A DNA stretch of 64,000 bases, from IMG/VR virus record IMGVR_UViG_3300025655_000024, positions 1 to 64,000 of that record; one strand, written 5' to 3'. The notes under the pieces were generated by a model. That model was not told the origin of the DNA, ran no database searches, and saw only the letters and a program-made list of their open reading frames with translations. This DNA is from a virus. Below, piece by piece: positions 10,393 through 21,379 of this stretch. The translations under genes and the position numbers were made by a program. Positions within the stretch are counted from its first letter, which is position 1. Each line of letters begins with the position of its first letter.

Positions 10393-11351
10393 TATACATG
10401 ATTGAACACAAACCACCAAGAGCCTATCCTGTGCCGAACCGTGAAGGGTTGTTTTCAACATACGCATGGCATCCCGGCATGAAGCAAAATTACATTTTGA
10501 GGATGAGCAAATCCTCACTTGGCGACTCCACCTTTTGCGCTCAACAATACTTCATTGGTCGCATCATTGGCATGAAAGAGCCACAGAACGATGATATGCT
10601 GAGAGGAACAAATGTCCACGATATTGTTGAGCAATTCTATGACAATGTGGACATTGAATACGCAAAGGGTCTTGATGCCGATAAGGTGGATATGTATTTT
10701 CAAAATTGTATGCCCGATGCTACGGGACTCAAAAAGCCCCAAGAGGTTTTCACACTTGATGAGGATTTGCACTTAGACCGCTATCGTGTTGCTGAGGTGC
10801 AACGCTTCTTGTCGTCAGATCCCGACAATTTTTTGCCAACAGGCAACGAATTGTTGGTTGATGATGTGGTTGAGATTGAGGTGGATGGCATCAAGCAATT
10901 GGTTCACTTCACAGGGTTCATTGACAGAATTTTCACCAACCCTGACGGCACACTTCACATTCACGAATTGAAAACGGGTCTATGGAAGGATAAGGAATAC
11001 AAATACAACAGCATGAGGAAGGAAATGGCGTTTTATGTTTGGTTGCTTCGCAAAACGGACAATTCAGCACGAATCACTCATTGGGGTTGGGATCACACAA
11101 AGGGACTTCAAGGCGAAACAGAAGAAAGCGAGGTATTCCGTCATGTTGAACCCGTTAGGGTGAAAGAAATCGGTGAAATGCTCGCTGATATGCACAACCT
11201 GATTCGTATGCACAGGCGATACAAAGGCGACGGGGAGGGGTCAATGTTTGCTCTCATCCCTGAATATCGCCAATACAACATTTGCGACCCTTGGTGCGGA
11301 TTGAAAGAATTCTGTCCTCGCTACACTAAACACTTGGAGGAAGAAAAATGA
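10386..11351 (+). CDS. Cas4/RecB-like PD-(D/E)xK nuclease with Fe-S-type cysteines
   Basis: SKSSL..FCAQQY, GTNVH, GFIDRI, HELKTG, C-terminal CDPWCGLKEFC. Confidence 0.85.
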   Translation: MVIYMIEHKPPRAYPVPNREGLFSTYAWHPGMKQNYILRMSKSSLGDSTFCAQQYFIGRIIGMKEPQNDDMLRGTNVHDIVEQFYDNVDIEYAKGLDADKVDMYFQNCMPDATGLKKPQEVFTLDEDLHLDRYRVAEVQRFLSSDPDNFLPTGNELLVDDVVEIEVDGIKQLVHFTGFIDRIFTNPDGTLHIHELKTGLWKDKEYKYNSMRKEMAFYVWLLRKTDNSARITHWGWDHTKGLQGETEESEVFRHVEPVRVKEIGEMLADMHNLIRMHRRYKGDGEGSMFALIPEYRQYNICDPWCGLKEFCPRYTKHLEEEK

Positions 11352-12973
11352 GAGAATTGCTAAACGATTGTTTTGTGCTTGAGGGCGATTGCCTTGAACG
11401 CTTGAAGGAATTGCCTGAAAAATCCATCCATACCTGCGTGACCTCCCCGCCCTATTACGCTTTGAGGGATTATGGCACAGGTTCGTGGGAGGGGGGCGAC
11501 CCGGATTGTGAACATGAAGGCGTTGTGTTAGGCAACAATAGAAATTTTGTTGATCGTGAGGGGAGAGGAAGCAACAATTCCGCCCTTGATAGTGGCGATT
11601 GCACCAAATGTGGTGCGATTAAGGTGGATTCTCAAATAGGGTTAGAAAAAACACCCGAAGAATTCATTCAAAACCTCGTTCATGTTTTCCGTGAAGTGCG
11701 AAGGGTTCTCCGTGATGACGGCACTTTGTGGTTAAACATGGGCGATTCCTATTGGGGTGGCAAAGGGGCGAGTGGACAAGGCGATTCAGCATACCAAGAA
11801 GCGCGGGTGGCCGAAGGCAAATCCTTCAACAAAGGTCATCATCAAATCGGAGGCTCAAAACAAACAAGGCCAACGGATGATTCCCATGAAACCTTCAAAC
11901 CGAAGGATTTGATGATGATACCGCATCGTTTGGCTATTGCTTTGCAGGATGATGGTTGGTGGGTGCGCCAAGACATTGTTTGGCATAAGCCCAATCCCAT
12001 GCCTGAGTCTGTCAAAGACCGATGCACAAAGGCACACGAATACATTTTCCTATTGTCAAAATCAAAACACTACCATTACGATCACGAAGCGGTAAAAGAA
12101 AGAACGACTGATTCATATGGAGGTAAAAGGGGCAAAGTGGTTAAACGGATTAAAACCCAATCCATGATGAAAGACCGAGTGTTTGACACCCCGTATTCAC
12201 ACGAAATGAGAAGAAATCGCCATTCGGTGTGGACTGTCAATGTTTTACCTTATTCCGAAGCACATTTTGCTGTTTATCCACCTGATTTGATTGAGCCTTG
12301 TATTCTTGCGGGCTGTCCACCAAAGGTTTGTTCGTCTTGTTTGACTCCGTATAAGAGGGAATTCAAGACAGAAGAACGCTTTTTGTCGCTTGAAGAATTG
12401 AATGAAAGCAATTTGAACCCCGATTCCGTGATTCCGAATTATGAAATCGTTGATGGGGAGAGGGTCAGCAAATTAACACGAATCATAGAGGATAGGAATT
12501 TGCCCGACCACGAAGAATTGCGCCAATACCTCCAAGAAAACAGAAAGAAAGCGGGTTTGACAATTAAAGAGGTTGAGGACTTTTTTGGCACATGGCAAGC
12601 ACACCATTGGCTCACGAAAGGAGGGAGTTATCCACCCGCTGAAAATTGGATGGATTTGAAACAATTGCTTGACTTGGATGACACATACGACAAGGCTATG
12701 ACAGAAATTTTCATTCGTTCAGGCATCAAGGTAAAGAGCGAAACCATTGACTTAGGGCTTGTTAAACAATGCGAATGCGAATGCGAATTGAGCGTAAGCG
12801 GAACAGTCCTTGACCCCTTTGGTGGCTCAGGAACAACGGCAGGAGTCGCACTCAAACATGGCCGTAAAGCAATTGTGTGCGAATTGAATCCCGAATATGT
12901 TGATTTGATGCCAAAGAGAATTGAAATGATCAGCGGGCGAAGCAAAGAGCAACGAACATTATTTGATTGGTGA
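11348..12973 (+). CDS. Beta-class N4-C/N6-A DNA methyltransferase with Zn-finger and HTH insertions
   Basis: TSPPY, IVWHKPNPMPES, HFAVYP, VLDPFGGSGTT; ends QRTLFDW. Confidence 0.92.
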   Translation: MRELLNDCFVLEGDCLERLKELPEKSIHTCVTSPPYYALRDYGTGSWEGGDPDCEHEGVVLGNNRNFVDREGRGSNNSALDSGDCTKCGAIKVDSQIGLEKTPEEFIQNLVHVFREVRRVLRDDGTLWLNMGDSYWGGKGASGQGDSAYQEARVAEGKSFNKGHHQIGGSKQTRPTDDSHETFKPKDLMMIPHRLAIALQDDGWWVRQDIVWHKPNPMPESVKDRCTKAHEYIFLLSKSKHYHYDHEAVKERTTDSYGGKRGKVVKRIKTQSMMKDRVFDTPYSHEMRRNRHSVWTVNVLPYSEAHFAVYPPDLIEPCILAGCPPKVCSSCLTPYKREFKTEERFLSLEELNESNLNPDSVIPNYEIVDGERVSKLTRIIEDRNLPDHEELRQYLQENRKKAGLTIKEVEDFFGTWQAHHWLTKGGSYPPAENWMDLKQLLDLDDTYDKAMTEIFIRSGIKVKSETIDLGLVKQCECECELSVSGTVLDPFGGSGTTAGVALKHGRKAIVCELNPEYVDLMPKRIEMISGRSKEQRTLFDW

Positions 12974-20254: not shown

Positions 20255-20263
20255 GTTTTCACC

Positions 20264-21379
20264 TCAAAATAATCTCGTCTGTATATGCCTTGGGTTGTTC
20301 AAGTGGTCTAACACACTTTCTGCCAAGGGATTCGTCACAAACGGTGAAAAGACATTCCCAATGACACCCGTTGAGGCATCTGTGACGCTCTTACCCGACC
20401 TATATTTGTGACCTTCGGTGGGCGACCAATCGTAATTTTTAGGGAAACCCTGCATTACACCCAATTCCGAAGGAGTCAGCACACGATTGTAAATGTGCGT
20501 TGCAGGATTAGAGGACATCAAACCCGGTATTGTTTGCGATGCAGGGGAGGTGTGTTTCCATGTGTAGCCCTTTCTGTTGTCATTCCATTCCGACCCACCC
20601 GTTCCCACATCAACCGAACCCGTGTCATTGATGAACACATCACCCATCAAATACCGAGCAACATCAGGTCTTATAATCCCGCGCTGAACCAATTGAGCAA
20701 GTGTTTCTTCTTTGTGTCCACGAATTTCTTGTTCTTCTTCAAGCAAATGTGGTAAAGCATCTAATGGCGTGGTTGAAGGTCGTTGGAGTCGTGGGTCAGA
20801 CAAGTCAAAACCCTGCCCAAGAACCGCCCTTTCACGATATGTCGGTGCGCCAAATTGTGCTGCCGTGACTTTCGGCATTCGCATTGATTGAAGCGAATCC
20901 ATCCACCTCCTACGGTGAGGATTCCATGTGGCGTTTTCCATCAAATACGGTATGACTTTTGGGCTATTCTCAAAAGACCATGAGTTAGGAGGGTTTTCGC
21001 TTGCTTCCAACATATCCAATAGGTTGCCGTAATTGTTGATGTGAGCCATACCGCGCATGGCTCGCTCATGTCCACTATCACCAATGTTCAATGGTGATGC
21101 TCTTGAGAAATCAGGGCAAGGTGTGGATGCGTTAATGTGATATTTGCGACCACCCACCGCATCCAAGATTTCTTGCATCAACCTCGCATTGTCAAATTCA
21201 TCACTCCCAATTGCCGCCCGTATATGTTTGGCTTCGGGGTGATTGGCAGCATGGGTGTCTAAAGCGGGCTTCCAATAATCAACGGCTAATGCCGTAGGAA
21301 TACCCTGCATTTTGAACCCTTGCGATACGCCACCGCCACCCGAATACAAATCAACGAGAGCAATATCGTCACGCATCAT
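20264..21379 (-). CDS. C5-cytosine DNA methyltransferase (orphan)
   Basis: DLYSGGGG, catalytic PC (STPCPDFS), FEN, RER, LTPSE..MQGFP, IGN; ends QTRLF. Confidence 0.88.
   Translation of the reverse strand: MMRDDIALVDLYSGGGGVSQGFKMQGIPTALAVDYWKPALDTHAANHPEAKHIRAAIGSDEFDNARLMQEILDAVGGRKYHINASTPCPDFSRASPLNIGDSGHERAMRGMAHINNYGNLLDMLEASENPPNSWSFENSPKVIPYLMENATWNPHRRRWMDSLQSMRMPKVTAAQFGAPTYRERAVLGQGFDLSDPRLQRPSTTPLDALPHLLEEEQEIRGHKEETLAQLVQRGIIRPDVARYLMGDVFINDTGSVDVGTGGSEWNDNRKGYTWKHTSPASQTIPGLMSSNPATHIYNRVLTPSELGVMQGFPKNYDWSPTEGHKYRSGKSVTDASTGVIGNVFSPFVTNPLAESVLDHLNNPRHIQTRLF

Follow-up and report, generated by a model that had tools for sequence, protein, structure and literature searches.

The genome of the virus recorded in IMG/VR as IMGVR_UViG_3300025655_000024 encodes three DNA methyltransferases (MTases) of different classes that end in QRTLFDW, QRTLF and QTRLF, and this raises the question of whether such tails attach the enzymes to a sliding clamp. 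We examined the first 64 kb of this single 80,179-bp viral contig (the window; features are listed in Table 1). A previous, sequence-only reading of the same DNA had proposed that the three classes converged on a tail resembling a PCNA-interacting peptide (PIP), by which nascent viral DNA would be methylated at the fork before host restriction can act. Our results favor an answer that we consider probable: the Q-x-x-L-F(-D-W) tails are PIP-box-type clamp-binding motifs on ordinary solitary MTases, which they would tether to PCNA-type rings (the viral clamp and, very possibly, host PCNA) for the methylation of nascent viral DNA, with escape from host restriction as the probable benefit.

The translations of the open reading frames (ORFs) reproduced, exact to the base, the five C-termini quoted in that reading, and the assignment of the three MTases to different classes was confirmed by the Pfam matches given in Table 1 and by visible catalytic motifs. 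These are SPPY in the beta-class enzyme, DPPY in the Dam-like enzyme, and motifs I, IV (PC), VI, VIII and X in the C5 enzyme (PC/ENS/QxRxR). In the beta-class enzyme the tail immediately follows the final helix of the catalytic domain, and residues Q1, L4 and W7 of the PIP box are present. Its Q, T and L are invariant across 12 aligned homologues with 48–91% identity.

The specificity of this ending was evaluated in a census of the ORFs called in 37 loci, the present genome and 36 related ones from IMG/VR; these ORFs were clustered and dereplicated at 90% identity. A terminal motif was defined as Q-x-x-[LIMV]-[FWY] or Q-x-x-[LIMV]-x-x-[FWY], located no more than three residues from the end. 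It was present on 32 of 44 MTase ORFs, compared with 3 of 360 other ORFs (Fisher p 4.6e-34), so the enrichment on MTases that the sequence-only reading had put forward as a check was observed. Across the 37 loci, 35 terminal hits were seen versus 2.0 expected from the internal motif density (p 1e-30), and in this genome 4 were seen versus 0.37 expected from internal positions (p 6e-4); all these p-values are inflated, since the counts cover related sequences and not independent events. The carriers belong to four MTase families without mutual homology, namely Dam-like, N6_N4 (of which some relatives have two tandem copies), divergent C5 and canonical C5. Under the same Gln-type definition, the conserved neighbors scored 0/27 (ERCC4 nuclease), 0/24 (Cas4-like nuclease) and 0/18 (family B DNA polymerase, PolB). 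The MTases of the 37 loci that fail the strict pattern are mostly K-for-Q variants, such as KKSLFDY and NKSLFDF.

In the homologous tails, Q, L and the aromatic residue proved to be conserved, in contrast to the x positions and the length of the linker, which drift. In the Dam-like family, the strict terminal motif was found in 20 of 34 full-length homologues, most of the others being K-for-Q variants such as KSLFDY; the ends include MQRRLF, SQKSLFDY, EQQNLDRFFQ and KQENLNKYF, and the linker that follows the conserved NFP varies from 1 to approximately 12 residues. In the C5 family the strict motif occurs in seven of eight homologues (for example KQTNLFDW, PQSKLFDW, QTTLLNW and QTTLNRW). Distant homologues carry full PIP boxes, such as QQNLDRFF, QENLNKYF and QTNLFDW. 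Judged from these alignments, the conservation pattern is the signature of a short linear motif on a flexible extension. Taken together, the sequence comparisons support the idea that unrelated MTase families have each acquired, independently, a PIP-type peptide as their tail.

It could be argued that endings of this kind arise by chance or as a by-product of DNA-level signals at gene ends, such as an oligo-T terminator or an overlapping ribosome-binding site. In many loci, the terminal Trp codon and the stop codon (TGG TGA) form the GGTGA Shine-Dalgarno ribosome-binding site of the next gene, and some of the L-F pairs are written TTA TTT. Against this explanation, which we regard as extremely improbable, stands the excess of terminal hits over expectation, almost all of it on MTases. 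In addition, the codons of the motif vary synonymously across homologues (Leu is encoded by CTG, TTG, CTA, CTC, CTT and TTA, Phe by TTC and TTT, and the Gln codons vary too), which indicates that the peptide, rather than the DNA, is under selection, and the motif persists before convergent as well as co-directional genes. An origin from a terminator or a ribosome-binding site was rejected for Q, L and F by this codon variation; it is still possible for the terminal Trp, a position that may be shaped by DNA-level selection.

A 106-kb contig of the Candidatus Poseidoniales single-cell genome AG-422-I20 carries a homologue of the Dam-like MTase and shares a block of at least five genes, with 50–65% identity, with the region 71–75 kb of the viral genome; another Poseidoniales label was found on one MTase homologue. 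Because of this synteny and of the labeled homologue, the virus is assigned, on sequence grounds, to the magrovirus-like tailed viruses of marine group II archaea (Poseidoniales). The descriptions of magroviruses include PolB, a sliding clamp, a clamp loader and a RecB-like nuclease (PMC5434244; PMC10768690). Like the Magrovirales, which are marine, Poseidoniales-associated tailed viruses of 80–100 kb with a replicative module of this composition, the virus studied here is tailed, is associated with Poseidoniales and encodes a PolB, a clamp and a clamp loader of its own; it differs in its G+C content, 48% versus 31.5% in the type species. We did not recognize MCM, an archaeo-eukaryotic primase or a ligase with Pfam, PHROGs or NCBIfam in this record, which is approximately 76% complete (CheckV estimate) and has large unannotated ORFs in its replication module; the MCM helicase, the archaeo-eukaryotic primase and the ligase are given for all 26 founding Magrovirales genomes (PMC5434244; PMC10768690). 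Two other hosts were considered. A haloarchaeal host, prompted by weak matches of PolB to haloviruses, was ruled out by the non-acidic, non-halophilic proteome (median isoelectric point 5.5; aspartate plus glutamate 12.5%). A bacterial host, in which the tails would be read as beta-clamp motifs, was ruled out by the synteny with the Poseidoniales single-cell contig and by the PCNA fold of the viral clamp.

With the host order in hand, the viral tails can be set beside a cellular peptide. The Fen1 of the Poseidoniales single cell ends in SSSQPSLFDF, and an end of the form Q/K-x-x-L-[FL]-x-F was present in 16 of 16 genomes of the host order from which Fen1 was recovered. The viral ends QRTLFDW, QRSLFDF, QKSLFDW and KKSLFDY follow the same pattern. 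In contrast, among the chromosomal MTases of the host order, a PIP-like end was found in 0/30 N6_N4, 1/9 C5 and 0/5 D12 enzymes, that is, in 1 of 44. The single case, a C5 MTase with the end QLHLNHFN, is encoded on contig 10 of one of the genomes (L099, genome G017; nine enzymes examined). Because the tails share the pattern of the host Fen1 end and are nearly absent from the host chromosomal MTases, they are, as far as these sequences tell, additions made by the virus in imitation of a genuine PCNA-binding peptide, and are neither intrinsic to the enzymes nor a habit of the lineage.

This comparison bears on two other explanations of the tails. According to the first, the tails dock on another hub or act within the MTase itself (in oligomerization or autoinhibition, or as a degradation or packaging signal), and their likeness to a PIP box is a coincidence. 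Many beta-class MTase homologues of other viruses (P0025–P0120) end in L-F tails, such as DAPLF... and SLGMFLDM..., which could be a family-intrinsic element, and the Dam-like enzymes carry a separate N-terminal tag that is common to late proteins. Nevertheless, we find this explanation quite improbable, given that the same motif occurs on three unrelated folds, that host chromosomal homologues of the same families almost never have it, that its pattern is that of the PCNA-binding end of the host Fen1, and that distant homologues carry full Q-x-x-L-x-x-F-F boxes. As a separate observation, the L-F-containing ends of the homologues P0025–P0120 include DAPLFTEIKREVVNES, QESLGMFLDMEIL and QGGLFTDLEILGG, and might be motifs for other types of clamp. 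The second explanation holds that the tailed proteins are decoys that outcompete the clients of host PCNA and shut down host replication and repair, the recruitment of MTases being incidental. The mimicry of the host Fen1 PIP box and the presence of several tailed proteins per genome would fit such a role, but the motif is confined to DNA MTases and does not occur on small dedicated inhibitors, and enzymes that act on the DNA encircled by a clamp are the natural beneficiaries of tethering; we hold a decoy function to be very improbable.

The virus encodes a candidate partner for the tails. The sequence-only reading had attributed to it a clamp and a clamp loader of its own, and both were verified, the loader by its match to phrog_168 and the AAA family and the clamp by its fold. 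The AlphaFold model of the clamp (predicted local distance difference test, pLDDT, 92) shows the two-domain beta-alpha-beta-beta-beta repeat of PCNA, and its best Foldseek matches were the PCNA of Pyrococcus and Thermococcus (TM 0.66–0.70, E ~1e-14). An alignment with host PCNA by hhalign gave a probability of 67.5% (E 5e-5) over the C-terminal domain, and the C-terminal APRxE of host PCNA is kept in the viral protein. At the sequence level, the clamp had no match to Pfam PCNA_N or PCNA_C and no significant match in the PDB, and the locus search with the single clamp sequence retrieved only relatives with 96–98% identity. According to its modeled fold, the viral clamp is a highly divergent relative of PCNA.

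Co-folding, which the sequence-only reading had suggested for each tail with the clamp trimer, was carried out with this clamp and residues 510–541 of the beta-class MTase in three runs, together with three controls. The peptide was docked with an ipSAE of 0.73 (runs 0.69–0.74), compared with 0.09 for the best of the three controls. The runs shared at least 91% of the contacts, and the pLDDT of the partner was 50. Only MTase residues 533–541 (KEQRTLFDW) contacted the clamp, touching its residues 41–47 (TADRAFF), 116–123, 135–138, 231–233 and 251–258 (IVAPRQEA), which we take to be the canonical PIP site of PCNA. The model thus supports, as a prediction, the docking of the beta-class tail in the PIP pocket of the viral clamp, and the geometry of this docking is likewise a predicted one.

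From these data we infer the binding of the tails, the choice of clamp, the coupling to replication and the benefit against restriction, as follows. The tail, carried beyond the catalytic domain by a short flexible extension, would occupy the hydrophobic pocket that lies below the interdomain connecting loop in a PCNA-type ring; here this ring would be the virus's own PCNA-like clamp and very possibly host PCNA too. Clamps loaded at the fork or left on the new duplex would raise the local concentration of the MTases on nascent viral DNA, and the recognition sites of the MTases would be methylated right after synthesis. In short, to judge from the sequences, the MTases probably travel with the clamp, methylating newly made viral DNA in the course of copying, and the most probable benefit would be escape from host restriction.

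Regarding restriction, we detected no restriction enzyme beside the MTases with Pfam, NCBIfam or PADLOC, several of the neighbors being without a family. This agrees with the earlier statement that no cognate restriction enzyme is visible; as judged from sequence, the MTases are solitary (orphan) enzymes that lack an adjacent cognate endonuclease within the limits of detection. The adjacent PD-(D/E)XK protein, whose gene overlaps the start of the beta-class MTase gene, was not identified as a restriction enzyme by any model searched; it resembles Cas4 and AddB, and it is kept in relatives independently of which MTases are present (24 related ORFs). The 80-kb genome itself shows evident restriction pressure. 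The sites ACGT, AGCT, CTAG and GTAC occur 0 times (expected 276, 249, 83 and 105, respectively) and TCGA once (expected 308), while CGCG, GCGC, CCGG, GGCC and GATC are only partly depleted, to 15–39% of expectation, and AATT is as frequent as expected. It may be speculated that GATC, CCGG, GGCC, GCGC and CGCG are plausible targets of the five MTases.

Several observations weigh against the interpretation of the tails as clamp-binding motifs, in addition to the inflated p-values of the census and the possible DNA-level origin of the terminal Trp. First, QRTLF and QTRLF are truncated PIP boxes that lack positions 6–8, including the aromatic positions 7 and 8. Second, although 58 of 80 solved complexes and 2 of 110 mismatched pairs reached the mark applied to the co-fold, the co-fold was run with alignments of our own, so this calibration is a rough one; furthermore, since PCNA–PIP complexes are abundant among solved structures, the score may partly reflect recall, that is, likeness rather than pair-specific binding. 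Third, two relatives, G003 (88% complete) and G004 (76% complete), gave no hit with the clamp profile, with Pfam PCNA_N, with PolB or with the clamp-loader family and yet keep the tails (KKKSLFDY and KTKRLFDY, QQMTLW and KQMKLW, and, in G003, also QKTLFQDW). Relatives that lack PolB, clamp and clamp loader but retain the tails indicate that the viral clamp is not required for the persistence of the motif. The proposal of convergence on a clamp-binding tail was therefore upheld only in part: a PIP-type peptide on unrelated families, its match to host Fen1 and a predicted docking stand, but the viral clamp as the target was not established, given that the clamp-less relatives keep their tails.

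In the clamp-less relatives, the sequences leave host PCNA as the sole partner at hand, and in this virus too it may be at least as likely a target as the viral clamp. In the slot of G003 that is syntenic with 7313–10392, we found a gene with a PAPS-reductase domain (L039:9410-10438, Pfam 5e-13); the next ORF encodes 185 aa and has KQTTLFQEGEE close to the end. The clamp profile and Pfam PCNA_N likewise gave no hit on the single-cell contig, whose Dam-like MTase has only a PTLSDF, without Gln, four residues before the end. In its strongest form, the alternative would be that the tails bind host PCNA only, the viral clamp serving PolB alone, and that any replisome with host PCNA would have methylation coupled to it. 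In favor of it, the viral tails nearly duplicate the PIP box of host Fen1, G003 and G004 have tailed MTases without a detectable clamp, PolB or clamp loader, and the end of PolB in this virus, RPVSLW, which is hydrophobic and aromatic like the MTase tails but has no Gln, is a hint that the viral clamp recognizes another motif. We nonetheless judge binding to host PCNA alone to be unlikely, because the co-fold puts QRTLFDW in the pocket of the viral clamp with a high score, because this clamp keeps the C-terminal APRxE, and because the uniformly short Dam-like tails of viruses with PolB and clamp resemble the L-W and L-F ends of their PolB (the ends of PolB orthologues are SLW, ALW, PLF and EWW). 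Tethering to PCNA-type rings of either origin remains the reading that we prefer.

The distribution of the two tail forms suggests a more specific version of this preferred reading. In viruses with PolB and clamp, the Dam-like tail is always a short Q-x-x-L-F/Y-COOH (eight distinct sequences), while in the clamp-less group it is a full x-x-L-[FYM]-D-[FY] (five distinct sequences). It is conceivable, though doubtful, that the short MTase tails and the L-W end of PolB are tuned to the viral PCNA as a private clamp, so that the five MTases would be loaded only on viral replisomes; the clamp-less relatives would then represent an ancestral state that borrows host PCNA through full Fen1-like tails. 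If this were true, viral DNA would be selectively marked at replication as self and the host chromosome left unmethylated, and, together with the purging of five 4-bp palindromes, such marking would constitute a two-tier anti-restriction program.

Peptides of this type are well known on other proteins. The archaeal PCNA clients with a C-terminal PIP box include Fen1, the large subunit of RFC, PolB, NucS and NreA (PMC4929162). The viral tails resemble them in the Q-x-x-L-x-x-aromatic peptide placed at the extreme C-terminus on a flexible extension, as in the Poseidoniales Fen1 ends QPSLFDF and QTSLFSF, and in the predicted seat in the pocket under the interdomain connecting loop, against the C-terminal APR segment of the clamp. 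They differ in that the carriers are virus-encoded DNA MTases and that two of the tails are cut to Q-x-x-L-F-COOH. MTases are absent from the archaeal PCNA clients given in PMC4929162 and from the prokaryotic entries of a 2022 table of clamp partners (PMC9690074).

In eukaryotes, DNMT1 (C5) interacts with PCNA through a PIP box, and the Tetrahymena enzyme AMT6 (N6-adenine) is also coupled to PCNA (PMC11761967; PMC9690074). In both cases an MTase is brought to newly replicated DNA by a PCNA-binding PIP box, which offers a functional analogy for the virus. Nevertheless, these are maintenance enzymes of cells that act in epigenetic inheritance, and their PIP boxes are internal or N-terminal, whereas the viral MTases are prokaryote-type solitary enzymes of several families with the PIP at the extreme C-terminus and a presumed anti-restriction role, and the recruitment modules are not homologous.

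The five-residue form of the motif also has a bacterial counterpart. Pol II, Pol IV, UmuC and Hda bind the beta clamp through the motif QL[SD]LF. The likeness is that five residues, Q-x-x-L-F, close the protein, as QRTLF and QTRLF do here; the differences are that the host is archaeal, that the viral clamp has the two-domain PCNA fold and not the three-domain beta fold, and that the longer tails are PIP boxes.

Our survey of the literature on clamp-binding motifs and MTases returned eukaryotic precedents only, with no report of PIP-tailed MTases in archaeal viruses or magroviruses, and the MTase tails are not mentioned in the magrovirus papers PMC5434244 and PMC10768690. PIP-box clients of archaeal PCNA and the coupling of MTases to PCNA in eukaryotes are thus already known; what is new, as no report of it was found, is the presence of PIP-tailed MTases of prokaryotic type in an archaeal virus. 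Within one viral group, a clamp-binding peptide like that of the host Fen1 was gained by at least four MTase lineages that are unrelated to each other, and the host chromosomal homologues almost never gained one; such independent gains, with nearly none in the host, point to strong selection for methylating DNA as it is made, in a virus that also avoids restriction sites to an extreme degree. If confirmed, DNA modification enzymes would join the list of archaeal PCNA clients, a simple sequence rule would be available for spotting replication-coupled modification enzymes in metagenomic viruses, and the peptide and the clamp would form a tractable system for studying how a hub of the host is shared out by viruses or exchanged for a private one.

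Table 1. Features of the viral contig considered in this work, in positions of the window unless indicated
Feature	Position	Strand	Basis of assignment	C-terminal end and remarks
Probable small N6-adenine MTase	2124-2885	+	EYYTPP and NPPF motifs; weak Pfam matches (EcoRI_methylase 1.2e-3, MTS 5e-3)	PVRWLFD
198-aa protein	3221-3817	+		ANQGALF; always just upstream of the clamp loader (synteny in G001, G002)
Clamp-loader AAA+ ATPase (RFC small subunit/gp44-like)	3869-4822	+	phrog_168 1.5e-37; Pfam AAA, DNA_pol3_delta2	
Divergent PCNA-like sliding clamp, 259 aa	7313-8092	+	fold	IVAPRQEAE
Family B DNA polymerase (PolB), 767 aa	8089-10392	+	Pfam PF00136 4e-24	RPVSLW
Cas4/RecB-like PD-(D/E)XK nuclease	10386-11351	+	Pfam PDDEXK_1 1e-15; weak Cas4 and AddB matches	C-terminal Cys cluster
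Beta-class N6/N4 DNA MTase, 541 aa	11348-12973	+	Pfam PF01555 N6_N4 2.7e-43	SKEQRTLFDW; tail QRTLFDW at 12950-12970
ERCC4 and HhH2 (XPF/Mus81-like) nuclease	14417-15178			basic, VKxKVKxxxA; kept in 27 related ORFs
Dam-like (D12 class) N6-adenine MTase, 385 aa	17528-18685	+	Pfam PF02086 6e-14	FPQQRTLF; tail QRTLF-COOH at 18668-18682
C5 cytosine MTase, 371 aa	20264-21379	-	Pfam PF00145 2.3e-12	HIQTRLF; tail QTRLF-COOH at 20267-20281
Giant ORF, 2947 aa	21717-30560	-		
Giant ORF, 1940 aa	30562-36384	-		
Fifth MTase, outside the 64-kb window	genome 75635-76714	-	DPPY motif	QQRDLLDF 22 residues before the end

Two further proteins of the window had been proposed to carry related ends. The end of the probable small N6-adenine MTase, described in the sequence-only reading as a weak match, is indeed present, but it lacks the Gln and was not established as a clamp motif; the relatives available for this ORF are near-identical ones only, and we retain it as a weak candidate tail. 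The end of the 198-aa protein did not hold up as a general feature, because it is not conserved in homologues (ESLFSKKWEANQ in G001 and no motif in G002). This protein had no family match in PHROGs, Pfam or NCBIfam and no match in the Atlas, and its fold model was unusable (pLDDT 43); that it might be an accessory subunit of the clamp loader is a guess. The crenarchaeal XPF carries a PIP end; no such end was found in any of the 27 orthologues of the ERCC4/XPF-like nuclease.

A different short element was observed on nine otherwise unrelated proteins, with the pattern [AIV]F-x-x-G-[WF]-x-x-x-K, at 17534–17566, at 18891–18923 (minus strand) and at seven more positions up to 78 kb of the genome. 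It is located at the N-terminus of the Dam-like MTase (AFxxGWxxxK), where it is kept in all relatives, and at the C-terminus of a second Dam-like MTase, just past the PIP-like motif. This tag may be a capsid-targeting or protease signal, in which case some of the MTases may be packaged into virions.

Concerning the layout of the genome, the replication module occupies approximately 0.2–18.7 kb on the plus strand and is followed by minus-strand genes that include the two giant ORFs and the head-tail genes; the G+C content is 46–51%, and no tRNA genes were found in the genome. The giant ORFs adjoin each other, downstream of the C5 MTase, and the larger one has homologues of 814–2947 aa in 25 related ORFs. 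Many proteins of the replication module have acidic G-G-D-E or E-E-E ends, whose last codons overlap both a GGAGGTGA ribosome-binding site and the following gene's start codon, as seen at 6150–6177, 7290–7316, 14020–14043, 17280–17301 and 17510–17531.

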